Assembly (NCBI GenBank): GCA_963716725.1
Contig: CAVQUB010000008.1
Span: 32,001 to 96,000, forward strand
Source of the DNA: an uncultured delta proteobacterium
GTDB taxonomy: Bacteria > Myxococcota_A > Polyangia > Polyangiales > Polyangiaceae
Reading direction: 5' to 3'
Length of the DNA: 64,000 nucleotides
Shown here: positions 39,781 through 61,862 of the stretch, in pieces
Position numbering within the stretch: the first letter of the stretch is position 1
Layout of the letters: every line of letters starts with the position of its first letter
Position numbers and translations under genes: made by a program
Notes under the pieces: model-generated
Databases searched by the model: none
What the model was told of the DNA's origin: nothing
What the model saw: only the letters and a program-made list of their open reading frames with translations

Positions 39781-40605
39781 TCAGTTCCTCTTCCTTCGCC
39801 GCAGCGCGAACGCGAGACCCAGGCCCGAGAGCAGCCACGCGATCCCGCCTTTGCGGCTCGGATCCGCGAGGCTGCAGCCGCCTTCATCGTCCGAGTCCGA
39901 ACCCGATTTCCCCGCCGCGCCACCGGTCGCAGCGCCGCCGCTCGCCGCGCCGCCGCTCGCCGCGCCGCCGCTCGCCGCGCCGCCGGAGCCAGCGCTGCCC
40001 GCGGTGCCTCCGCCAGCCCCCGCCGTTCCGCCGGTGCTGGTCGAACCGCCAGCCCCCGCCGTTCCGCCGGTGCTGGTCGACCCGCCAGTGCCGGTCGCGC
40101 CACCGGTACCACCTGCACCACCGGTGCCGCCGTCGGCCTGGCTGTTCAGGAACTTGTCGATGACCTGGCAGGGGGTGAAGCCGGCCAGCACTCCCAACGC
40201 GATGGGATAGACGTCCGGCTTGACGGGCGTCGCGTTCGGCGCCCGCAAGCTGCCCGTGGGCAGACTCTGATCCCCGAGCCCGATGCAGACGTCGTCCTTT
40301 TCCTTGATGTTCTTCTCGACGTCCGCCCACTCGCTGACGCAGGTCTTCTCCTGACCGGACGGGCAGGAGTAGTACAGATACCCGAACGCGGGCTCGGTGT
40401 ACCCGGCGTAGCTGGTGCCGGTGCTCTTGTCGTAGAGCATCGCGGCGCCGTGGATTTGGATCTTCGTGGGCGCGGTGGCGCTGGGTTCGAGCACCACCTT
40501 CTTCACTTTGACCCAGACGCCGGCTGGCAAACTCGCCGACGCGTCGCTCGCGCTGAACACGACGCCGAGCGCGAGCAGGGTTTTGAACACATTTGCAGAC
40601 CTCAT
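39781..40605 (-). CDS. MYXO-CTERM secreted protein
   Basis: Signal peptide, 4-Cys domain, Gly linker, then GGCSL...WLLSGLGLAFALRRRKRN. Confidence 0.85.
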   Translation of the reverse strand: MRSANVFKTLLALGVVFSASDASASLPAGVWVKVKKVVLEPSATAPTKIQIHGAAMLYDKSTGTSYAGYTEPAFGYLYYSCPSGQEKTCVSEWADVEKNIKEKDDVCIGLGDQSLPTGSLRAPNATPVKPDVYPIALGVLAGFTPCQVIDKFLNSQADGGTGGAGGTGGATGTGGSTSTGGTAGAGGSTSTGGTAGAGGGTAGSAGSGGAASGGAASGGAASGGAATGGAAGKSGSDSDDEGGCSLADPSRKGGIAWLLSGLGLAFALRRRKRN

Positions 40606-40706
40606 TCCTGACACCTCCAGTTGCAGAGGAGACCGTCTGAGCAACAGGCGGGCCAGGACCGGATCCAGTGATTACGAACGGTTCCCCGTGGTCTCCGCGC
40701 GTTTCA

Positions 40707-40718: not shown

Positions 40719-40816
40719 CGCGGCTCGGGCCGGGGGGGCCCGGCGCCGCTCGAATCGCGCCGATTGCGCCCGCTCACGGCAGTTGGTACCGAGCGGCCGA
40801 ATACGGTTGACCCCAA

Positions 40817-42544
40817 ATGCGACGTTCCCCTCTCTTCACGCTCACTGCCGTCACGCTGCTCTGTGCCTCCACCGCGCTCGCGGAGGGCGGCTTCGCCCTC
40901 GATCGCTACGAGCCGTCCGAGCGCGGCAGCGATTGGTTCGCCAACGAGTCCCTCGATCTGCGAGGCAACGGTCGCCTCGCGCTCGGGGCAGTCGGTGACT
41001 ACGCGTACAAGCCGCTGGTCTTTTACGACGCCAACGGGGACGAGCAGGCCGCCGTGGTCGAGCACCAGCTCTTTGTCCACCTCGGCGGTGCGATCGTGCT
41101 CTTTGATCGACTGCGGCTCGGCGCGAACCTGCCTCTCCTGGCCTACAGCAAGGGCGACTCGCTCGACGTCGCCAACTCATCCTTCTCGACCAGCGACAAA
41201 GCGAGCGTGGGCGATCCGAGGTTGACGGCCGACGTTCGCGTGCTCGGTGAATACGGCGGCGCAGCGACCCTCGCCTTCGGGGTCCAGGGGTTCATCCCGG
41301 TGGGCAACGAGGAAGCCTTCGCCAGCGACGGCAAGCTGCGCATCCGGCCGCGCCTGATGCTGGCCGGTGACGTCGGCGACATGGCCTACGCGGCACAGAC
41401 GGGGTTCAACTATCGCGCCAGGGGCGACAACCTCGGCGAGGAGGCCTTCGGGAGCGAACTCACTTTTTCGGCGGCGGTCGGCCTGCGCGCCCTGGACAAG
41501 AAGCTGATCGTCGGCCCCGAGGTCTTCGGCTCGACCGTGGTCAGCGACGGTGGCGACGGCGCATTCAAGAAGCGAACGACGCCGCTCGAGCTGGTCTTCG
41601 GCGGGAAGTACCGGGTCACGCCGGATTGGCGAGTCGGCGCTGCCGTCGGACCGGGCCTGAGCCGCGGCGTCGGCGCGCCCCAGGTGCGCGTGCTCGCGAG
41701 CATCGAGTGGTTCCCCGCGATGGAAAAGGCCGCGGGTCCGTCGGACCGCGACAGGGACGGGATCCTCGACGCGGACGACGCCTGCCCGGACACCCCGGGC
41801 GTTCGTACGGACGACCCCAAGACCAACGGCTGCCCGCCGGCGGATGCGCCCTCCGATCGCGACAAGGACGGGATCCTCGACGTGGACGACGCTTGCCCCG
41901 ACGTGCCCGGGGTCAAGAACGACGATCCCAAGAAGAACGGCTGCCCGCCCCCGAAGGACTCGGACGGAGACGGGATCACCGACGACGTCGACGCCTGCCC
42001 GACGGAGGCCGGTGTTGCCAACGTCGATCCGAGCAAGCACGGCTGTCCCGCCCCGAAGGACACCGACGGCGACGGCATCCTCGACGCAGAGGACGCCTGC
42101 CCGGACAAGGCCGGCCCTGCCGATCCCGATCCCAAGAAACACGGCTGCCCGAAGGCCCAGATCGACAAAGGGCAGATCAAGATCATCGAGCAGGTGCAGT
42201 TCGCGACCAACAGCGCGAAGATCCTGCCGGCCAGCGATCCCGTGTTGAACGCGGTCCTGGAGATCCTGCGAGATCACCCCGAGATCACCAAGGTGAACGT
42301 CGAGGGCCACACGGACAACCGCGGTGGCAAGGGCCACAACAAGGATCTCAGCAAACGCCGGGCCGCCAGCGTGGCCAAGTGGCTGGTGGACAAGGGCATC
42401 GAGGCGAAGCGGCTCTCTTCGGCGGGCTTTGGCATGGAGCGTCCCCTCGACAGCAATGACACCGAGGACGGCCGGCAGAAGAACCGGCGCGTCGAGTTCC
42501 ACATCCAGGCGAACGAAGGTTCGACGACCGTGAAGACGAAGTGA
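40817..42544 (+). CDS. OmpA-family outer-membrane protein (beta-barrel + TSP3 repeats + OmpA PG-binding domain; TraB-like architecture)
   Basis: Signal peptide; beta-strand-rich N-domain; 4x DxDGIxDxxDACP; VEGHTD, LSKRRA, NRRVEF. Confidence 0.92.
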   Translation: MRRSPLFTLTAVTLLCASTALAEGGFALDRYEPSERGSDWFANESLDLRGNGRLALGAVGDYAYKPLVFYDANGDEQAAVVEHQLFVHLGGAIVLFDRLRLGANLPLLAYSKGDSLDVANSSFSTSDKASVGDPRLTADVRVLGEYGGAATLAFGVQGFIPVGNEEAFASDGKLRIRPRLMLAGDVGDMAYAAQTGFNYRARGDNLGEEAFGSELTFSAAVGLRALDKKLIVGPEVFGSTVVSDGGDGAFKKRTTPLELVFGGKYRVTPDWRVGAAVGPGLSRGVGAPQVRVLASIEWFPAMEKAAGPSDRDRDGILDADDACPDTPGVRTDDPKTNGCPPADAPSDRDKDGILDVDDACPDVPGVKNDDPKKNGCPPPKDSDGDGITDDVDACPTEAGVANVDPSKHGCPAPKDTDGDGILDAEDACPDKAGPADPDPKKHGCPKAQIDKGQIKIIEQVQFATNSAKILPASDPVLNAVLEILRDHPEITKVNVEGHTDNRGGKGHNKDLSKRRAASVAKWLVDKGIEAKRLSSAGFGMERPLDSNDTEDGRQKNRRVEFHIQANEGSTTVKTK

Positions 42545-42558
42545 CCAAGAGGACGACC

Positions 42559-45672
<3,114 letters not shown>

Positions 45673-50725: not shown

Positions 50726-51613
50726 GTGCGCGGCCTCGGATTTTCGCTCTCGCTCTTACTCGTGACGATGCTCGTCGCGAGCTGCGTCGTGGACGAAGAC
50801 TTCGACGACGGGCACTTTCTCTGCGATCCCGGCGGCGGCGAGGACGAGTGCCCGGAGGGGCTGCGTTGCGCCCAAGACGGTCGTTGCCGCAAGTCGCTCT
50901 CCCTGCCCGACGGCAGCGCTGGGACCGGCGGCAAAGACAGCGGCGCCGACGGGAGCTGCTTCCCGACCACGTGCCAGAGCCTCGCTCCAAAGTGCGGGGA
51001 CTTGGACGACGGCTGCGGGAACAAGCTCAATTGCGGCTGCCAAGCTCCGGACAGCTGTGGCGGCGCGGGCACGCCAGGCGTCTGCGGCTGCACCAAGAAG
51101 CAGTCCCGGACCAGGTTTGCAGACGCGGTGTTCGAAGCCAAGATCACGGGCAATACGGCCTGGACCAACGTCGCGGATGCCGCCCTCTCCGACGACAAAT
51201 GGGCCACCACCGCCGTGGCCCTGGACGCCGGCAAGACCACCAATCAGCTGAAGGCTTCGGCCTTCGGGTTCACGCTGCCGCCCAAGGCCGTGGTGCTGGG
51301 CGTCGAGATCGGCATCGAACGCTCGGCGCTCGGATCGGCGACGGCGCTGAAGGACAAAGAAGTGCGGGTGCTGGTGAAAGGCGTGGCGCTGGCGACCAAC
51401 GGCGCCAGTGCCGCAGCGTGGTCCACGACCGACGCCGAAGCGAAATACGGCTCCGGCACGGAGCTGTGGGGAGCGACCTCGATCTCGCCGGCCGACGTCC
51501 AGGCCGCTGACTTCGGTGTGCTCTTGACCGTTACGGCGACGGCCTCCGGCACTCCGCGCGTGGACGCGATTTCGATCACGGTTCACTTCGACGATCCGGC
51601 GTGTCCCAACTGA
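50726..51613 (+). CDS. Cys-rich lipoprotein with C-terminal beta-sandwich domain
   Basis: Lipobox LVASC; CGDLDDGCG..LNCG repeat; FGFTLP..VLGVE...YGS..ELWG domain. Confidence 0.78.
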   Translation: MRGLGFSLSLLLVTMLVASCVVDEDFDDGHFLCDPGGGEDECPEGLRCAQDGRCRKSLSLPDGSAGTGGKDSGADGSCFPTTCQSLAPKCGDLDDGCGNKLNCGCQAPDSCGGAGTPGVCGCTKKQSRTRFADAVFEAKITGNTAWTNVADAALSDDKWATTAVALDAGKTTNQLKASAFGFTLPPKAVVLGVEIGIERSALGSATALKDKEVRVLVKGVALATNGASAAAWSTTDAEAKYGSGTELWGATSISPADVQAADFGVLLTVTATASGTPRVDAISITVHFDDPACPN

Positions 51614-51620
51614 GGTCACG

Positions 51621-52145
51621 ATGAGTCCCTATCGGACCAGCACGGCGACCATTCGTCCCGAGGATCTCGACCAACTCTTCGCGGCCAAGAGCAACTTGAA
51701 GGCGGAAGATGGGCTCAGCGTTTCTTACCTTCTCCTGCCCTGGAAACGTCACGTGTTCGTCGTGCGCTACGAGCCTGCCTCGATGGGTGCGTTCCTCCAA
51801 CCTCTGGCGAGCAACGCAACGTTTCGCATCGACGTGCTTCGCTCGGATGAGGTCGCGATCGGTCGTTATGGAATCGATGGCGACCGGCTGACCCGCCAAG
51901 ACGCGCGGGAGCACGAGTTCGAACGCGAGAGCCACGACCTGGAGGTGCTGAGTCGCGTGACCAGCGCGCAGGTGCGCGTCGGTGGCGTGCGCTTCGGCTT
52001 GGCCGAAGGCAAGCTGCTGTTCGAGGTCTCGGGCTTCGAAGTCGACGAGTTGAGCCAGCGCTTCAGCGCTGCATTTCCATGGCAGGCCCTCGGGCTGCCT
52101 GCCTTGCTGGGTCGAGAGTGGCTGGTGCTCGACCGTCCGATGTGA
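51621..52145 (+). CDS. Hypothetical protein
   Basis: GAGG RBS; fills the gap between flanking genes. Confidence 0.55.
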   Translation: MSPYRTSTATIRPEDLDQLFAAKSNLKAEDGLSVSYLLLPWKRHVFVVRYEPASMGAFLQPLASNATFRIDVLRSDEVAIGRYGIDGDRLTRQDAREHEFERESHDLEVLSRVTSAQVRVGGVRFGLAEGKLLFEVSGFEVDELSQRFSAAFPWQALGLPALLGREWLVLDRPM

Positions 52146-52233
52146 CCCGGGAATGCCAACCGGGGGTTTGCGTCGGCAAGACGCGGTTGGCGGCTCAGCC
52201 CCGACAACATCGTGAAATCGGGGGGGTCCGCTC

Positions 52234-52249
52234 CGGCCTCGGACTTGCA
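52234..52249 (+). promoter_or_regulatory. Possible sigma-54 promoter
   Basis: CGGCCTCGGACTTGCA (GG-N10-GC with TTGCA) just upstream of ATG 52265. Confidence 0.4.
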
Positions 52250-52264
52250 CTGGACAGCGTCTAC

Positions 52265-53344
52265 ATGCGCAAGCGGCTGATGGTTTGGGCCTTCGGGGGG
52301 ACGGCAACGCTGGCGCTGCTCACGCTCGTGCTCGGCAGCGGAAGCGAGCGAAGCGTCCTTCGGGCGAACCCGGTTCGCCTCTCGCTCGGGAGTGCTGCGG
52401 GTCGCGCCGCTCCAAAGCCCACGCCCGCGGCCTCGGCGCTGCCCGCTGTGACCACCGCGACCGCGCAGAACGGCGTGAGTTCCGAGCAGGTCTTCCACGC
52501 GCCTTGGGGTGCGGCAACCGGTGAGCTGGGCAAGAAGGCCGCAAATGAGTCCTCCCCCGAGGGACCAGCCAGCTTCGCGGTAGACGCGCGCGGTCGGGCC
52601 TTTGTGCTCGATCAGGTCAACGGCCGCGTGCAGATCTTCGAGCCGGGACTGAAGCCTCGCAGCGTCCCGCTTCCGGGAGACACCTACCAAGACGTCGCCC
52701 TGAGGTCTGACGACGGCATCGTGTTGCTCGATCGTCTGACCAAAGAGACGGTGGCCTTCGCCGACGCCAGCGGCAAGGTCACCCACGAGATCCGCTTGCA
52801 GGGCGAGGGCGTCGTCGAGGCTGGCGACGTGACCGGCTTGTTCCAGCGCAACGACGGCACCTGGGTCGAGGTGAAACACGCGAACTTGGTGCAGATCGCC
52901 GACGCCGACGGCGCCCCGCTGGAAGATCGCACCATCGTGCAGGGTCGAATGGCGGCGGACGGCAAGGTGCTGCGCGCATCGAAGTCGGGATCGCATGCCG
53001 CATACGTCGCAGAGAAGACCAGCGACGGCGTGAGAGCGCTGGCCAAGGTCAACTTCGACTTGCCGGTGTGGCAGCTGCTCGAGCTCGACACCGACGCCCG
53101 AGGGCGCGTGTTTCTGGGGGCGAGCCTGCTGGAGGAGTCCGCCGCGCCCCCCTTCCAGGTGATCGAGGCGCGCGAAGTGGTGGTCGTGCTCGACGACGCC
53201 GGAGTCGAGCAAGCGCGCGTGGACCTTCCGGCCAGCACCGGCGCCGAGGAGAGCTTTCGCCGCATCCGGATCGGCGCCGATGGCGTCCTGTATCACCTGG
53301 CCTACGAGGAACGCGGCGCGACCATGAGGAGGTTCTCGCTATGA
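52265..53344 (+). CDS. Membrane-anchored/secreted NHL-type beta-propeller protein
   Basis: N-terminal hydrophobic segment; EGPASFAVDARGRAFVLDQVNGRVQIF, LDTDARGRVFL, IGADGVLY. Stop overlaps the next ATG. Confidence 0.82.
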   Translation: MRKRLMVWAFGGTATLALLTLVLGSGSERSVLRANPVRLSLGSAAGRAAPKPTPAASALPAVTTATAQNGVSSEQVFHAPWGAATGELGKKAANESSPEGPASFAVDARGRAFVLDQVNGRVQIFEPGLKPRSVPLPGDTYQDVALRSDDGIVLLDRLTKETVAFADASGKVTHEIRLQGEGVVEAGDVTGLFQRNDGTWVEVKHANLVQIADADGAPLEDRTIVQGRMAADGKVLRASKSGSHAAYVAEKTSDGVRALAKVNFDLPVWQLLELDTDARGRVFLGASLLEESAAPPFQVIEAREVVVVLDDAGVEQARVDLPASTGAEESFRRIRIGADGVLYHLAYEERGATMRRFSL

Positions 53345-54921
53345 TCCGCTGGCGTCACCTGGCGCTGGTCGGCGCCGCTCTCGGTGTCGCGTTGCCGGCG
53401 CTGGCCGCGCCGCCCGCCATGACCCGCGACGAAATCCTCTCGCGGGGCAAGGGCGTCGTGAAGTTCTCCTATTGGTGGGGCCATGGCCGCTGGAGCACCA
53501 GCTCGACCTCCCACGGATCGTGCTCGGGTAGCTGCCCGGGCTGTTCCCACTCGGGCTCCTACGGGGCGGACTGCTCCGGCTTCGTCGCCAAGGCGTGGCA
53601 GGTGCCCGGCGCCATCAGCGTGACCACTGACTCGCACCCCTATTCGACCTATCACTTCGACAACACCAGCACCCACTGGACCACGATCTCGCGGAGCAGC
53701 ACCAAGCAAGCCGACGCCTTCGTCTACAACACCAACGGCGCCGGCCACATCGTGCTCTACGAGAGTGGCGACCCCTGGGGATGGGTCACCGCCATCGAGT
53801 GCAAGGGATGCAGCTACGGTTGCGTGCGCGGCAGCCGCACCCTGAGCTCGAGCTACAAGGCTATCCGACGCCACAACGTGCAGGACTTTGCCGACAAGGA
53901 CGGCGACGGAGTCGCGGACGCCAAAGACAACTGCGTATCGACCAAGAACACCAGCCAGACCGACACCAACAAAGACGGGCAGGGCGACGCCTGCGACACA
54001 GACGACGACGGCGACGGCGTGGCGGACGCCAAGGACAACTGCGCCTTGGTGAAGAACGCGACCCAGACCGACACGGACAAAGACGGCAAGGGCGACGCCT
54101 GCGACACGGATGACGACGGCGACGGCGTGCTGGATGCCAAGGACAACTGCGCGCTCGCGTCCAACAAGAGCCAACTCGACACGGACAAAGACGGTAAGGG
54201 CGACGCCTGCGATACCGATGACGACGGCGACGGCGTCTTGGACAGCAAGGACAACTGCGCGCTGGTGAAGAACGCGACCCAGGCCGACACCGACAAAGAC
54301 GGCAAAGGCGACGCCTGCGCGGTGGATGACGACGGGGACGGCGTCGTCGATACCGACGACAACTGCAAGCTCGACGCCAACTCGGACCAGACCGACAGCG
54401 ACGGGGACGGCAAAGGCGACGCTTGCGACGACGACGACGACGGAGACGGCGTGGTCGACGCGGCCGACGTCTGTCCCAACGTGACGGATTCGACGCAGGC
54501 GGATGCGGACGGCGACGGACTGGGCGATGCGTGCGACGATGATCGCGACGGCGACGGAGTCGCCAACGCGAGCGACAACTGTCCGGAGCTCGCCGCCGAG
54601 AGCCAAGACGACAGCGACGAGGACGGCGTGGGCGACGCGTGCGACGACGATCTCGACGGCGACGGCGTCTTCAATGCCGTCGACAACTGCCCGACCGTCT
54701 CCAATCCCGATCAGAAAGACGGCATTGGCGACAAGGGTGCAGCGTGCTCGGCCGGTGATCTCGGAGATTTGGGCTTCGATGGCGCCGGAGGCTTCGACCC
54801 GGGTGAAGAGATGAGCGGCGGCTGTGGTTGCTCGCTGCCCGGCGACGGGCGCGAGTCGTCGTTCGGGCTCCTGGCCCTGATCGCCGCGCTCTCGCTGATC
54901 GGCCGTCGGCGCTCCCGCTAG
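53341..54921 (+). CDS. NlpC/P60 (C40)-like peptidoglycan endopeptidase + 8 TSP3 units + MYXO-CTERM
   Basis: Signal peptide; [27 protein letters not shown]; 8 x 36-aa DGDGVxDxxDNC..DxDxDGxGDAC; GGCGC...[10 protein letters not shown]. Confidence 0.88.
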
Positions 54922-54922
54922 G

Positions 54923-54939
54923 GCCAACCGCCGGTTGGC
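54923..54939. terminator. Palindrome GCCAACCG-c-CGGTTGGC after stop codon
   Basis: Perfect 8-bp inverted repeat right after the TAG. Could be a terminator or a binding site. Confidence 0.35.
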
Positions 54940-55002
54940 AGTTGGCGGCGGCGGTGACGCCAAGACTCAGCCCTAACCAGCTGAAATCACACGCTGGGAA
55001 GC

Positions 55003-55018
55003 TGGTCCCGCCTTTGCA
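55003..55018 (+). promoter_or_regulatory. Possible sigma-54 promoter
   Basis: TGGTCCCGCCTTTGCA (GG-N10-GC) just upstream of ATG 55032. Confidence 0.45.
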
Positions 55019-55031
55019 CATACATCAGCCC

Positions 55032-56531
55032 ATGGCGCACTGGGCTCGCTTCGGGTTGTTGTTGACCGTCCTGTTCACCTTCGCGTGTCAGGCAGGGCCA
55101 ATGGGAAACGAGGAGCCGATCCTCGAGGTGCATCAGGACGTCAGCGCGCCGCTCGCCAAGGCCTACTGCTCGGTCCCGGTGACGGGCGTCGGGACGAAGA
55201 ACATGGAGGAGGACTACCTCCCCCACGTGATCACCTGCGAGAACGGCGGCGCCAATCTCCAGGCGTTGAAGGCGCAGGCCATCTCCGCGCGTTCCGTCGC
55301 CTACTACGCGATGGCCACCAAGGGATCCATCTGCGACGGACAAGGCTGCCAGGTGTACTCGTGTGGCGCGAAGCCCTCGGCCAAGGCCTACCAGGCCGTG
55401 AAGGAGACCGCGGGCATCTACCTGTCGTTCGGCGGGATGCTCACCTACGGCTTCTACGTCAGCGGTGACAACAACACCTCGGCGCCAAGCTGCAAGGGCA
55501 GCTCGAGTCACGCCATGGAGAAGTACGTCACCTACAACTCCGGGCTCAGCGGCACGAGCGTGAAGCAGACCTCGCTCGGGTACATCGGGCCGCCGGGCTA
55601 CGGACAGAACCGCGGGTGCATGAGCCAATGGGGCGCGCGCTGCCTCGAGGCCAACAAGGGCTACGACTACAAGCAGATCTTACAGTTCTACTACGGCTCG
55701 GACATCAAGCTCCTGACCGCCTCGGGGTCGTGTGTCGGGCCGGCCGACGGCGACGGCGACGGCGTGACCGACGACAAAGACAACTGCCCGAGCGCCAAGA
55801 ACGCGGATCAGAAAGACACGGACAAGGACGGCAAGGGTGACGCTTGTGACACCGACGATGACGGTGACGGCGTCGCGGACACGACGGACAACTGCCCCTT
55901 GGTGTCGAACAAGGCGCAGACCGACACGGACAAGGACGGAAAGGGCGACGCTTGTGACACCGACGATGACGGCGACGGCGTCGCGGACACGACGGACAAC
56001 TGCCCCTTGGTGTCGAACAAGGCGCAGACCGATACGGACAAGGACGGCAAGGGCGACGCCTGCGAGACCGATGACGACGGTGACGGAGTCGCCGACGACA
56101 CCGATAACTGCCCTGGGACTCCCAACGCTGACCAGACCGACACGGACAACGACGGCGAAGGGGACGTCTGCGACGACGACGGAGACGGTGACGGAGTCGC
56201 CGACGCGAGCGACAACTGCCCGACCACGTCGAATCCCGATCAGGCCGACTCGGACGAAGACGGAGCGGGCGACGCTTGCGACTCGCCGAGCGGCACCGGC
56301 GGTGCCAGCGGCAGCGGCGGCTCGAGTGGTGCCGGCGGTTCGAGCGGCGGCAGCGGTTCGGGTGGCAAGAGCACCGGCGGCGGCGCGGGCCAGCAGACGA
56401 AGGTGGTCGACGATGGCGACGACGACGGTGGCTGCACCACGTCGCGCGGACCGGCCGGGTCTGGCTTCGGACTGATGGGCGCGCTGGTCGCCCTTGCATT
56501 CGCCGGGCGCCGGCGGACAATGGCGCGATGA
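55032..56531 (+). CDS. SpoIID/LytB-family lytic transglycosylase + 5 TSP3 units + MYXO-CTERM
   Basis: [26 protein letters not shown]...[24 protein letters not shown]; lipobox-like FTFAC; GGC...LAFAGRRR. Confidence 0.9.
55815..56085 (+). repeat. 108-bp near-identical tandem repeats (TSP3 units)
   Basis: Units begin at 55815, 55923 and 56031. GTCGCGGACACGACGGACAACTGCCCCTTGGTGTCGAACAAGGCGCAGACC is identical in two copies. Confidence 0.85.
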
Positions 56532-57766
56532 TCGCCCGCGCTTTGGTGCTGCTCGGCGTGCTGGGGCTCGCGGGGTGCGCCGTCGAGGTTCAGCCCGACG
56601 AGCCCGACGGTCCCGAGCCACAGGAAGAGATCGCGACCGTCCAGAGCGGGCTCAGCGTGTCCCAGGCCCTCTCGAGTGGCTGCTCGACTGCGATCGTCGA
56701 AGGCCTGAGCAAGCAGATCATCGCGGAGATGAACTGCATGAACCCGAACGCGCTGAAGGCGGTGCCGTCGCGCCCGAACCTGGTGAAGAACGCCTCGCAC
56801 GTGTTCATGGTCATGCAGCCCAGCGCGGTGGACGCTCTGGTCAAGGCGGTGGACTCGAGCCCGAGCAAGACGCTGCACATCAACAGCATGCTGCGCACCC
56901 TGCCCCAGCAGTGGCTGCTCTATCACTGGTACCAGGCCGGCAAATGCGGCATCCCGCTGGCAGCCACGCCCGGCAACTCGAACCACGAAGGCGGCACGGC
57001 CTTCGACACCGGGGACTACACTGCCTGGAAGAGCGCGCTCACCGCCAAGGGCTTCCAGTGGTACGGCTCCAGCGACGTCTACCACTACACCTACGTTGGC
57101 GCCGGCACCGTCAACCTCAAGGGCAAGGACGTTCTCGCGTTCCAGCGGCTTTGGAACCTGAACAACCCGGGAGACAAGATCACGGAGGACGGCGACTTTG
57201 GCCCGGCCAGCGACTCTCGCTTGGGCAAGAGCCCCACCGAAGGATTCGCGAAAGGGTCGACTTGCTCGCAGCAGCCCAGCGACTCCGATGGCGACGGCGT
57301 CGCGGACGCCACGGACAACTGCCCCGGCGCGAAGAACCCGGGCCAGGAAGATCTCGACCAGGACGGCCAGGGCGATGCCTGCGACGATGACGACGACGGT
57401 GACGGCGTCCCCGACGCGACGGACAACTGCCCGAGCGTGGGCAACGCGACCCAAGTCGACTGCGACCAGGACGGCAAAGGCGACGCCTGCGACGGCGCCA
57501 GCGACTGCGGAACTGGCGGTGCGGCCGGTGCGGCGGGAGCCGGCGGAAGTGCGGGCGTGGCGGGTGCGGCCGGCAGCGGCGGTGCGATCAGCGCGTCGGG
57601 TGGCAGTTCAGGCACCGGCGGCGGAGGCGGGCAGTCGACCAAGACGCTCAGCGACAGCGGCGACGGCGGCAGCTGCACCGTGAGCGCACAACCGCGCGCT
57701 GCGGGCTTCGCTTGGCTGCTCGCCGCGTTTGCACTGGGTTGGGCCCGACGCCGACCTGTTCGCTGA
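56528..57766 (+). CDS. M15-family (VanY-like) Zn peptidase + PG-binding domain + 2 TSP3 units + MYXO-CTERM
   Basis: Lipobox [62 protein letters not shown]...LGWARRR. Confidence 0.9.
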
Positions 57767-57863
57767 ATTTCACGCTCTTGGGTGGCCCTCGGCCCGCGGG
57801 CCGTGCTATTTGCACTGCACCGAGGGGCACCCCGCGTCGCTCGGCTCAGCGAAGGAGCATCGC

Positions 57864-59045
57864 ATGCGTCGAGGCCTGGCTTTCGTTCTCGGTTCAGTCG
57901 TCATCACGATCGCCGCTGCGGCGTGCAGCAGCGCTAGCGGCGGAGGCGGCGACGGAGGAGGAGGAGGTTCGAGCGCCTCGGGCGGCGGTGGCAGCGGCGG
58001 CAGCGGCGGTGGCGTGAACATCGACGGCGGTGGCGGCACCGGCGCGCTGACGGGCTGCGAGAAACAGGTCTTTGGCGGCGAGCTGGTCCCCGTCGACATG
58101 TTCCTGATGTTCGATCGCAGCGGGTCGATGCAGGACGGCGGTAAGTGGAGCTCCGTCACCGGCGCCGTGAAGAAATTCGTCGCGCTGCCTGGGCTCAGCC
58201 AGCTCGGCATGGGGCTCGGTTTCTTCCCGGTCAACGCCACCGGCCCCATCCCCACGGCCTGCACCAAGGACCTCGACTGCGGCTTTTACGGGCCGTGCAT
58301 GCCCGGCTTCAACAACTGCTCTGGTTCGCTGCTCGGCATGAAAGACTCATGCGTCTCGACCGACTACCAGAAGCCGGCGGTCGGGATCGAAGACTTCCCG
58401 GGCGTTGCATCCAAGATCACCGCCGCCCTTGACGGTGCGACCCCGGGCGGCGATTCGACTCCGGCGGGGCCCGCCCTCGAAGGCGCCATCGATCACGCCA
58501 CGATCTGGCAACAGGATCACCTCGACCGCGTGGTGGTGGTGATCCTCGCCACCGACGGCGAGCCCAACAACTGCACGCCCAACACCGTGGCGGACGTGGC
58601 TGGCCACGCCGCCGAGGGGGCCAAGCAGACGCCTCCCATCAAGACCTTCGTGATCGGCGTCGGCGAGCTCTCGGTGCTCAATCAGGTCGCCGCGGCTGGA
58701 GGGACCGACAAAGCCATCATCGTCAGCACCGGCAACGCCGAGAAAGAGTTCCTCGACGCGCTGAACAAGATCCGCGGCGCGGTCGGCTGCCAGTACCTGA
58801 TCCCCACCGGCGGCAAGTCCGACCCCAAGAAGGTCAACGTGCTCTTCACGCCCGAAGACGGCAGCCCGGGCGTGCTCATCAAGCAGTCCCCGAGCGCGTC
58901 CGCCTGTGTCGGTCAAGTTGGCTGGTACTACGACAATCCCGACTCGCCCACGCAGATCATCTTGTGCCCCGGTGCCTGCGACCTCGTCACGAACAAGAAG
59001 GGCAAAGTCGAGGTCGTGGTCGGCTGCAAGACCGAGGTCAACTAG
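57864..59045 (+). CDS. vWA-domain Cys-rich lipoprotein (CglB-like)
   Basis: Lipobox [42 protein letters not shown]. Confidence 0.87.
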
Positions 59046-59506: not shown

Positions 59507-60379
59507 ATGACCGACCCTCGGAACCGAGGCTTCGGCGCAGCCCCCAATGCGCCGTTCTGGCTCGTATCGGAGCACCACTCCGTCGGCCTGGTGTCCGGCA
59601 GCTACGTGCTGGGTCGCGCCGCCGATGCTGACGTGCAGATCCTGTCTGACCCCAACGTGTCACGCCGTCACGCACGGCTGGTCGTCACTCAGGACGTGGT
59701 CGAGGTCGAAGACCTGGGCAGCAGCAACGGGACTTGGCTCGACGGTAAGCTGGTGCAGCACCCGCTCCGCATGCCGGTGGGCGCCAGGCTGCGCGTCGGC
59801 GCGGAGATCTTCGAACTTCGTCGATTGCACCCCTCCCGCAGAGACCGGAACACGGCGAGGACCTCGCCGGAGGCGCCGAACGCGCGGCAAGTGCAGATCC
59901 GGGAGATCTCTGGGCCTGACGCGGCGACCGCCCAAGAGACGCCCGTCGACATGGTCTACGACCAGGTGATGGCGCTGCTCGAAAAGAAGGACGTGGCAGG
60001 CGCGCGGCGCTTCGTCGATCCGCTCCTCGACCTGCTCGAGCTCGGGCATCGGCCGCTGCATGCCGCCGCCCTCGAGCGCGTCTCAGCGCTGACCCTCGGC
60101 CTGGCCGAGGCGTCGGGCGATGGTCGCTACGTCGAGTGGACCCTCACCGAGCATCGTCGCCGCTCCCGCCTCATGAGCCAGCGCACGGTGGACCTGTTCG
60201 AGCGGGTGCTGTGCACCGGCGTTCCGGTCGATGCGGAGCCCGTCGAGAACTACCTGGCCGCCATCGACGAGCTCAGCCTCGCCGTCACGCCCGGGGATGT
60301 TGTGCAGGTCTCGCGCATCCGGGCCGCCGCGGAAAGCCGCGGTTTCACCCTGCCGGCCCCGCCGCCGGAGCGGCACTGA
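59507..60379 (+). CDS. FHA-domain protein
   Basis: LGR, VSRRHARL, VEDLGSSNGTWLDG. Confidence 0.9.
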   Translation: MTDPRNRGFGAAPNAPFWLVSEHHSVGLVSGSYVLGRAADADVQILSDPNVSRRHARLVVTQDVVEVEDLGSSNGTWLDGKLVQHPLRMPVGARLRVGAEIFELRRLHPSRRDRNTARTSPEAPNARQVQIREISGPDAATAQETPVDMVYDQVMALLEKKDVAGARRFVDPLLDLLELGHRPLHAAALERVSALTLGLAEASGDGRYVEWTLTEHRRRSRLMSQRTVDLFERVLCTGVPVDAEPVENYLAAIDELSLAVTPGDVVQVSRIRAAAESRGFTLPAPPPERH

Positions 60380-60464
60380 GGGCGAATGCCCTGGGTATGA
60401 CGGGCCTCCCGCGACGGCCTCAAATCGAGTAGCGTCCGACCCGCCCATGGAAAGGACGAGTCGA

Positions 60465-61862
<1,398 letters not shown>

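Follow-up and report, generated by a model that had tools for sequence, protein, structure and literature searches.

How predatory bacteria protect their own cell wall from the hydrolases that they export is an open question. A locus in a 64,000-nt stretch of DNA from an uncultured member of the Polyangiaceae (contig CAVQUB010000008.1; the whole stretch is called the window below, and all positions refer to it) raises this question in the form of a gene pair that is directly testable. The region examined, 52265..57766 on the + strand, holds four co-oriented + strand open reading frames (ORFs), here called g1 to g4, all with high third-position GC. A first-pass annotation had described it as three consecutive hydrolase genes. 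The three enzymes are real, but there are four genes, and the first of them (52265-53344), which had been left undescribed, does not encode a hydrolase. This gene and the next, g1 and g2, are the main new result of the locus and its most interesting part, missed in the first pass – an enzyme of the NlpC/P60 type and a beta-propeller protein that is predicted to be its inhibitor or immunity partner.

The g2 enzyme

The g2 gene (53341-54921, + strand) encodes a protein of 526 aa with a signal peptide (ALA/AP), a head resembling NlpC/P60 and CHAP enzymes at approximately residues 25-180, about seven TSP3 repeats, and a MYXO-CTERM tail. The original assignment of the head to NlpC/P60 fails at the level of the Pfam family but is borne out by the fold and the catalytic residues. 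The isolated head scores 18.4 bits against PF00877, under the gathering cut-off of 23, and the whole protein has no PF00877 match at E ≤ 0.01. A paralog of the head in the same genome is likewise under the cut-off, at 21.4 bits. Profiles and folds were needed, as the best relevant match in a single-sequence search of solved structures, Rv1477 (2xiv), had an unusable E of 0.15.

In an alignment of 29 sequences – the query and 28 of the 120 homologs listed – C78, H136 and E153 are invariant (29/29), and from their positions they would form the catalytic triad. The fold model of the head, built on these 29 sequences (pLDDT 78.7), was matched by Foldseek to RipB, MepS, CHAPK, RipA, LytE and SagA, with E from 5e-4 to 1e-2 and probabilities of 0.91-1.00. 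The TM values are modest, 0.26-0.50 overall, with RipB, MepS and CHAPK at 0.45-0.50 and E 5e-4. Among the matches listed, all of those with E ≤ 0.01 are bacterial or phage cell-wall hydrolases, nearly all of the NlpC/P60 or CHAP type. On its modelled fold, the g2 head is a divergent NlpC/P60-type cysteine peptidase. Its family has at least 776 proteins, and none of the 120 homologs listed has a Pfam family on the head. Among the matches listed, homologs of the g2 head and of g4 bear SH3_3, PEGA, CarboxypepD_reg, FG-GAP and SLH modules in place of TSP3.

Just before the catalytic Cys is an invariant Cys-rich stretch (residues 57-73, ca. 53509-53559) with C61, C65, C68 and H70, modelled at low confidence. 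It may be a metal or disulfide knot. Residues 65-66 fall within the predicted g1 interface described below.

The g1 protein

The g1 gene (52265-53344, + strand) encodes a protein of 359 aa. A hydrophobic segment at the N-terminus, either signal or anchor, is followed by a linker rich in Pro and Ala and then, at approximately residues 70-359, by a six-bladed beta-propeller of the NHL-like type. The g1 stop codon overlaps the start codon of g2 in an ATGA at 53341, with GAGGAGG 9 nt upstream of the g2 ATG. A second ATGA, at 56528, joins the g3 stop to the g4 start. Both overlaps had been reported in the first pass and both are real, but the one at 53341 joins g1 to the NlpC/P60 gene, not two hydrolases.

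No Pfam family matches g1 at E ≤ 0.01, and the match to NHL is weak (14.1 bits). Its neighbors by protein-atlas features are six-bladed beta-propeller and NHL clusters. From these features, the weak NHL match and the confidence of the complex model below, g1 is assigned as an NHL-like six-bladed propeller with an N-terminal membrane or signal segment, and not as a hydrolase.

There are 201 g1-family cluster representatives at E ≤ 1e-30, and relaxing the threshold to E ≤ 1e-10 gives 605. Among 150 representatives listed there were 144 new identifiers, and 126 of these have 300-450 residues and a start residue. An N-terminal hydrophobic segment is found in 115 of these 126 full-length-like proteins and a lipobox-like motif in 22.

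Pairing of g1 and g2

In a survey of 41 related genomes (the window's own and 40 others), the g2-head and g1 families co-occur in an identical set of 17. There were 39 g2-head matches, and setting aside four weak partial ones left 35 strong matches, 31 of which have a g1-like gene within 2 kb. In the other direction, 30 of the 32 g1-like matches have a g2-head match within 2 kb. The position of the partner varies among the pairs – upstream, downstream, divergent and convergent arrangements all occur. Both paralogous g1-g2 pairs in the window's own genome keep the partnership, and their enzymes have no MYXO-CTERM match. One of these enzymes has SH3_3 domains; the other, the paralog with an NLPC_P60 score of 21.4 bits, again overlaps the stop codon of its partner.

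A complex of g1 residues 70-359 and g2 head residues 25-180 was modelled from alignments built for this analysis in three runs, along with three controls. The score was 0.94 in all three runs, and the best control scored 0.00. In a benchmark of this score, the 0.94 mark was attained by 116 of 157 solved complexes and by 2 of 215 mismatched pairs. The three runs share at least 98% of their contacts, and the partner has a pLDDT of at least 92. The predicted interface includes g2 residues 77-80 (with C78), 134-136 (with H136) and 153-160 (with E153), and a g1 loop at residues 91-98. Adjoining this loop, E95, P98, E99 and P101 of g1 are at least 90% conserved in the family alignment. The conserved g1 loop, N-E-S-S-P-E-G-P, is thus predicted to sit on the catalytic Cys78 and His136 of g2, and g1 is predicted from this model to be an inhibitor or immunity partner of g2.

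Similarity to known immunity pairs

Pairs of a wall hydrolase and an immunity protein are a known kind of system. In the type VI secretion pair Tse1-Tsi1 of Pseudomonas aeruginosa, Tsi1 is a partial beta-propeller that places a Ser on the catalytic His of Tse1, an NlpC/P60 amidase, according to the available text of the structural report (PMC3391265). In that pair, as in g1-g2, the gene of a Cys-His enzyme of the NlpC/P60 superfamily stands beside one whose product is periplasmic, all-beta and of the propeller type. A conserved loop of this partner covers the active site and makes contact with the catalytic His, which for g1-g2 is only predicted. The differences are in the route and in the size of the partner. 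Unlike a one-domain protein that is loaded into a type VI apparatus, g2 bears a Sec signal together with a tag for surface sorting. The g1 propeller is complete, NHL-like and six-bladed (ca. 290 residues), against the three sheets of the partial propeller Tsi1. Sequence similarity between g1-g2 and Tse1-Tsi1 was not detected.

A second parallel is the X-Tfe/X-Tfi system of Xanthomonas, in which, as far as the accessible part of the report describes it, the propeller-like immunity protein X-Tfi guards the cell against cis-intoxication by its own wall-degrading effector (PMC10933484). This immunity protein is also membrane-tethered, periplasmic and beta-propeller-like. The effector differs from g2, in that X-Tfe is lysozyme-like, has no signal peptide and follows a type IV route (PMC10933484). 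The Sec signal and MYXO-CTERM tail of g2 point to a route other than type VI or type IV secretion, although genes for those systems were not searched for.

A literature search found nothing joining NlpC/P60 enzymes, propeller-type immunity proteins and peptidoglycan. With a family that is unannotated on its head and a stand-alone propeller family, g1-g2 looks like an effector-immunity module tied to Sec, myxosortase and type II export and not to injection.

The g3 and g4 enzymes

The g3 gene (55032-56531, + strand) encodes a protein of 499 aa with a lipobox-type signal (..FTFAC, Cys19), a SpoIID-like head at approximately residues 25-243, about five TSP3 repeats, a Gly/Ser linker and a MYXO-CTERM tail. 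The SpoIID domain named in the first pass was recovered at 43.7 bits against PF08486, above the cut-off of 23, although g3 is below the cut-offs of the NCBIfam SpoIID models (71.2 vs 83.3 for TIGR02669, 32.5 vs 234.75 for TIGR02870). It also matches the solved SpoIID structure 5i1t at E 2.2e-5. In that alignment E70 falls on the Glu of the GEM motif, and a ten-residue stretch aligns with GHGVGMSQWGA, so that the G-x-G-MSQ-x-GA motif is present. E70 is kept in 78/78 sequences of the g3 family and nine Cys are kept in 76-78 of the 78. By these matches, g3 is a compact, Cys-rich SpoIID-like protein with putative lytic transglycosylase activity.

The arrangement recalls SpoIID and SpoIIP of endospore engulfment, as g3 has the SpoIID domain, the catalytic Glu and MSQWGA and is coupled to a gene for a stem-peptide peptidase, g4. 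It differs in that the g3 head is compact (ca. 210 residues), rich in conserved Cys and lipid-tagged, in an organism that does not form endospores, and in that the partner is an M15 peptidase, not the SpoIIP amidase.

The g3 family reaches the cultured genera Nannocystis, Enhygromyxa, Plesiocystis and Paraliomyxa. Among 77 loci with g3 homologs (named records), a crude pattern detects a MYXO-CTERM-like tail in 55, and 11 have TSP3 repeats; of the 22 without the tail pattern, several look MYXO-CTERM-like by eye and three run off the locus. At L125, L127, L140, L143, L145 and L146, some of the tails, again by eye, are Cys-rich somatomedin B-like or bulb-type lectin-like and replace MYXO-CTERM. 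A g3 paralog with a MYXO-CTERM tail in the window's own genome (G000:C2:344808-353843; locus L021 809-9844, - strand) heads a series of genes for a sigma-54 activator, an unknown protein, gspD, gspE and gspF. The downstream order gspD-gspE is also found at at least 4 of the 77 loci (L093, L100, L102, L108), and L098 has it as far as gspD. A literature search on SpoIID and Myxococcus, judged by title and abstract, found nothing on myxobacterial SpoIID-like proteins.

The g4 gene (56528-57766, + strand) encodes a protein of 412 aa with a lipoprotein signal (LAGC, Cys17), an M15/LAS head, a two-helix element, two to three TSP3 repeats, a Gly/Ser linker and a MYXO-CTERM tail. As with g2, the M15 family assigned in the first pass is under the Pfam threshold in the single protein and is recovered from the family and the fold. 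The match of g4 to VanY (PF02557) is 19.2-20.4 bits against a gathering cut-off of 25, and a single-sequence search of solved structures with the head gave chance matches only. In an alignment of 27 sequences (26 of the 120 homologs listed, and the query), all 27 match VanY at E ≤ 0.01, the best at 5.1e-9. The family profile matches solved M15 enzymes at E 4e-4 to 6.5e-3 (LdcB-like 4mph 4e-4, Ply500 2vo9 1e-3). The fold model (pLDDT 87.1) was matched by Foldseek to the M15/LAS enzymes VanXYc, Ply500, LdcB and VanX. H153, D160, D183 and H186 are invariant in 27/27 sequences and contain the expected Zn ligands, His-x6-Asp and a later His. The g4 head is, on these profiles and its modelled fold, an M15 zinc peptidase of the VanY/LdcB/Ply500 kind.

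With the carboxypeptidases LdcB and VanY and the phage L-Ala-D-Glu endolysins Ply500 and LysB4, g4 shares SxHxxGxAxD, the later His and the LAS fold. The acidic residue three before the last His is Asp in g4 (D183-x-x-H186), matching Ply500 in the profile alignment. VanY and LdcB carry Glu at the equivalent position. An extra N-terminal helical part, the lipobox, the TSP3 repeats and the MYXO-CTERM tail set g4 apart from these enzymes.

The peptidoglycan-binding domain that had also been claimed for g4 was rejected, with no PG_binding_1 (PF01471) match in g4 or in any of the 27 aligned family members. At residues 200-234 there is a two-helix element (200-212 and 226-234 in the model) that resembles part of such a domain and has a conserved DG-x-FGP motif. 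It may be a degenerate relative of the peptidoglycan-binding domain. Many g4-family proteins are annotated with PF26780, a recent Pfam family, which did not appear in Pfam scans of the aligned members made here. One family member matches Somatomedin_B at E 9.8e-23. Elsewhere in the genome, at G000:C15:305260-307157, a g4-like M15 match with an in-frame TGA is found beside an opposite-strand MYXO-CTERM protein with a weak M15-like match. This may be a decayed second M15 locus.

Shared tails and the sorting machinery

The layout of head, TSP3 repeats and MYXO-CTERM tail described in the first pass is present in all three enzymes. TSP_3 (PF02412) scores 232.2 bits over seven stretches in g2, 173.7 over five in g3 and 52.4 over two in g4. 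In a DNA repeat comparison the arrays have a 108-nt period and lie on the + strand at 53891-54730 (g2), 55744-56259 (g3) and 57279-57578 (g4). The MYXO-CTERM tails (TIGR03901, + strand) are at 54814-54918, 56424-56516 and 57662-57754, respectively, and score 26.2, 22.0 and 25.0 bits in a six-frame search of the genome, against a cut-off of 20. Between the end of each match and the stop codon there are 0-4 residues, and each tail consists of a Cys, a hydrophobic helix and an Arg cluster. At the other end, the signal peptide claimed for all three enzymes is an ordinary one only in g2; the signals of g3 (FAC) and g4 (LAGC) are of the lipobox type.

The genome has 56 MYXO-CTERM matches, one gene with a myxosortase core (NF040914, 150.4 bits vs a cut-off of 100) and three secretins. 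After removal of 1 internal match, of 5 ORFs shorter than 150 aa and of the 4 genes of the window that had been scanned before, 46 other MYXO-CTERM proteins remained and were scanned. None of the 46 has PF02412 at E ≤ 1e-4, and the TSP3 layout shared by three adjacent genes is therefore not the background of the genome. Three of the 46 have Peptidase_M23, one has Amidase_2 and one SpoIID; others are trypsin, subtilase, polysaccharide lyase, phosphatase and glycosidase proteins. Of the 50 MYXO-CTERM proteins scanned, at least 8 are thus wall hydrolases, which are a recurrent class of clients. In the Peptidase_M23 and Amidase_2 proteins (L043, L065, L071, L050) the spacers are MopE-type metal-binding motifs, FG-GAP or Golvesin_C, not TSP3.

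The TSP3-plus-tag tail shared by the three genes looks like the result of local domain shuffling, judging from the sequences; over 68 nt the tail DNA of g3 has 74% identity to that of g4. The TSP3 copies are no more than 64-74% identical at the DNA level, and recent gene conversion between the arrays was therefore rejected.

The first-pass statement that MYXO-CTERM sorts proteins such as TraA to the cell surface agrees with a published route. In Myxococcus xanthus, MYXO-CTERM directs TraA and MXAN_4924 to the cell surface via MrtX and the type II secretion system, and in the authors' model a folded client waits in the periplasm (PMC11980579). In the available text of that paper, cleavage, lipidation and surface exposure are demonstrated for TraA and MXAN_4924 only. 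The tags of g2, g3 and g4 have the same Cys motif, hydrophobic helix and Arg cluster as the M. xanthus proteins TraA, MXAN_4924, MepA and MstC/MtsC, and the genome likewise has a myxosortase-core gene and secretins.

The first pass also knew of no described system with this organization, which was too strong. MYXO-CTERM surface hydrolases, like hydrolase/immunity pairs, are of a known kind; the majority of M. xanthus MYXO-CTERM proteins are predicted to be adhesins or hydrolases, and the legend of Table S1 names TSP_3 repeats and a MurNAc-LAA amidase domain (PMC11980579). The observation was largely right, the interpretation partly so, and the novelty overstated. The NCBIfam cohesion protein NF047638 also joins TSP3 to MYXO-CTERM, and g2, g3 and g4 match it in part. 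Their scores of 247.7, 176.7 and 71 bits are far below the cut-off of 350, and they are therefore not MtsC. A literature search on MtsC and Myxococcus found nothing on these enzymes. In the accessible part of the published account, no peptidoglycan hydrolase is among the characterized MYXO-CTERM clients, whereas here three wall-cutting chemistries are tagged side by side. The locus also departs from those clients in that two of its enzymes (g3, g4) add an N-terminal lipobox and one (g2) has a dedicated inhibitor-like partner. Few myxobacterial bacteriolytic enzymes have been characterized, and a review, in its available text, names LlpM and MepA (PMC10433427).

Proposed function

On balance, the evidence tilts toward envelope- or surface-tethered hydrolases that act on foreign peptidoglycan, at the surface of cells or vesicles, with g1 protecting the wall of the producer while g2 crosses the periplasm. 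The locus would consist of two translationally coupled pairs, an inhibitor with its enzyme (g1-g2) and a SpoIID-like lytic transglycosylase with an M15 peptidase (g3-g4), and g1 would be a membrane-tethered periplasmic propeller. Sec would export all three enzymes. The MYXO-CTERM helix would hold them in the inner membrane, with lipidation of the tag Cys and cleavage by myxosortase, and the type II secretion system would then place them on the outside of the outer membrane, and hence on vesicles too. There they would cut the peptidoglycan of other cells or of debris. During the periplasmic wait g1 would keep folded g2 inactive, leaving the producer safe from its own enzyme.

A broader proposal, possible though doubtful, is that myxobacteria widely carry a so far undescribed class of wall-hydrolase/immunity modules that work without an injection apparatus. 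In such modules a Sec-exported NlpC/P60-type enzyme, displayed on the surface or on vesicles by MYXO-CTERM and type II secretion or else released, would be a contact weapon against prey walls, and a membrane-tethered propeller would plug its active site in the producer's periplasm. If that is true, the g1 family is a new immunity or inhibitor fold family, and the locus is a natural example of one type of calcium-binding stalk and anchor that carries three different ways of cutting the wall. The enzymes, if active, could serve as lytic agents against Gram-positive walls.

Several points weigh against the favored reading. The three-gene cluster is limited to one genus, and 4 of the 35 strong g2-head matches lack a g1-like neighbor within 2 kb. 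The complex model may show likeness and not binding of this copy, since a like complex (Tse1-Tsi1) is solved; the alignments used were built for this analysis. In an hmmscan of the whole proteins the MYXO-CTERM scores are 20.6 (g2), 16.5 (g3) and 19.7 (g4), the latter two just under the cut-off of 20. The lipobox would put the heads of g3 and g4 next to an N-terminal lipid anchor, which weakens the picture of an enzyme on a stalk. With MYXO-CTERM at the other end, g3 and g4 are predicted to be lipid-anchored at both ends, a topology problem that the proposed route leaves unexplained. Hydrolases that are outer-membrane lipoproteins are, as a rule, turned toward the wall of their own cell. Nor is the TSP3 spacer a sign of extracellular location, because two OmpA-family proteins in the window have TSP3 repeats between the barrel and the OmpA domain, where they are periplasmic by the established topology of that family. 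An inhibitor would equally suit a regulated autolysin. Finally, what is computed comprises the domain identities, the catalytic residues, the tags, the overlapping codons, the conservation of the gene pairs and the predicted interface, whereas export route, surface exposure, activity, inhibition and substrate are inferred.

It is nevertheless unlikely that the enzymes are periplasmic autolysins, tethered by the N-terminal lipid, the C-terminal tag or both, with the TSP3 spacer reaching the cell's own sacculus and g1 as a regulatory inhibitor of g2, for remodelling of the wall in growth, division, or spore or fruiting-body formation. The lipobox signals fit such enzymes – Cys17 is invariant in 27/27 aligned g4-family sequences, and a lipobox-like N-terminus is found in 50 of the 77 g3-family loci by regular expression – and so do the use of TSP3 as a linker in the OmpA-family proteins of the same window and a dedicated inhibitor, for which IseA-LytE and NlpI-MepS are known parallels among autolysins. 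The distribution of the heads, however, is not that of core wall enzymes. They are accessory and patchy in the 41 genomes, with g2 in 17, g3 in 15 and g4 in 22, and 1-6 matches per positive genome. Their homologs bear modules typical of secreted proteins, and the g3 paralog heads a type II secretion cluster. MYXO-CTERM, moreover, has so far been demonstrated only for surface delivery in the available text of the sorting study (PMC11980579). An outward role is preferred over housekeeping because the heads are patchy and multi-copy, their homologs have extracellular-type modules, a paralog stands in a type II secretion context, and an inhibitor is needed.

Conservation of the gene order

The four genes g1-g2-g3-g4 are contiguous in four of six same-genus genomes, and g3 and g4 are adjacent in all six. 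In the other two, g1-g2 is separated from g3-g4 by 13 and 23 kb, on the same strand, with unrelated genes between. In the 34 genomes outside the genus the three head types were never found on one contig; many of these assemblies are fragmented, so that the heads are best described as not found together and not as absent. Near the 77 g3 homologs, a g4-like gene is within 7 kb in nine loci and directly downstream in seven, and g1 and g2 are near in three. In four of the seven the g3 identity is 77-92%, and these may coincide with members of the same-genus set; the other three (L081, L085, L094) are more distant. As the locus is split in two of six same-genus genomes and the heads are unlinked outside the genus, it consists of two separable pairs, g1-g2 and g3-g4. 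A conserved three-enzyme operon across the order, the battery that the first pass had proposed, was rejected on the split pairs, the absence of a shared contig outside the genus and the few linked g3 loci.

It is accordingly quite improbable that the three enzymes are a co-evolved sequential machine, as the first pass had suggested, with the peptidases, upon contact with prey, removing stem peptides before the SpoIID-like enzyme cleaves the glycan left bare. SpoIID does prefer stripped glycan, the g3-g4 pairing recalls SpoIID with SpoIIP, and g3 and g4 are translationally coupled, adjacent in every same-genus genome and next to each other at the three distant loci. The TSP3 stalk is also limited to these three genes among the MYXO-CTERM proteins scanned. 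Apart from the separations of 13-23 kb and the scarcity of linked loci, however, the cluster has no amidase that would strip the glycan, and one same-genus g4 ortholog looks split into two frames. The adjacency of the three genes is better explained by local shuffling of the TSP3-plus-tag tail onto three heads than by an obligate machine.

Tight linkage, shuffled gene order and several diverged pairs per genome are the usual pattern of toxin-immunity modules. All are seen for g1-g2, but least probable of the readings weighed here is that the pair is directed at myxobacteria or other Gram-negative neighbors, with the lipid-anchored hydrolase arriving by, for example, outer membrane exchange or vesicle fusion and harming cells without a matching g1: the Tse1-Tsi1-like binding mode and the transfer of lipoprotein toxins by outer membrane exchange in myxobacteria, as given in the available text of PMC8546572, are in its favor, but an enzyme in the outer leaflet must still cross the neighbor's outer membrane, no link to traA/traB, type VI or polymorphic-toxin architecture was seen near the locus (no search for these was made), and paralogs without a lipid tag keep their partner, for which self-protection during export is the simpler explanation.

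In the same-genus genome with the 23-kb split, the open frame around the g2-head match is 930 codons long. A 114-aa ORF (L073 12283-12627, - strand, and L074) in the inserted region of this genome comprises a TSP3 repeat with a MYXO-CTERM tail and nothing else, and may be left over from a g2-type tail that was rearranged.

Other features of the region

The 110-nt gap between g2 and g3 has an inverted repeat, GCCAACC-GCC-GGTTGGC, at 54924..54940 (+ strand), just after the g2 stop codon, as read directly from the DNA. The two same-genus genomes in which the pairs are separated break at the g2-g3 junction that holds this repeat (n=2). The repeat may mark a point between the two pairs where a transcript is delimited or processed. 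The terminator scan did not call it because it has no T run. The promoter scan gave no sites, and the terminator-like sites, 6 against 4.0 ± 2.0 expected, are uninformative. No immunity-like partner for g3 or g4 was found; the downstream gene (57729-59045), with a weak VWA match, has no counterpart beside the same-genus orthologs.

Three contigs of a wastewater metatranscriptome (X20) align without mismatches over 53576-53729 (g2 head), 53966-54104 (g2 TSP3) and 56863-57013 (g4 head). They are of low depth, from a library that may contain DNA and has no silent control stretch, and the TSP3 cover is mostly that of other organisms, so they do not demonstrate transcription and the uncovered stretches are uninformative. 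DNA nearly identical to 51500-58500 is present in biofilter, wastewater, sediment and groundwater metagenomes, with at least half of the sampled words present in 9 runs from 3 studies; the best-matching of these may be the source sample itself and is not independent support.

The window is dense in genes for envelope proteins. Two further MYXO-CTERM proteins and the two OmpA-family outer-membrane proteins are encoded at 39781-40671 (-), 42460-45672 (+), 40811-42544 (+) and 60231-61862 (+). One of these MYXO-CTERM proteins has no Pfam family, and the other has DUF11 and bacterial TSP3 repeats.

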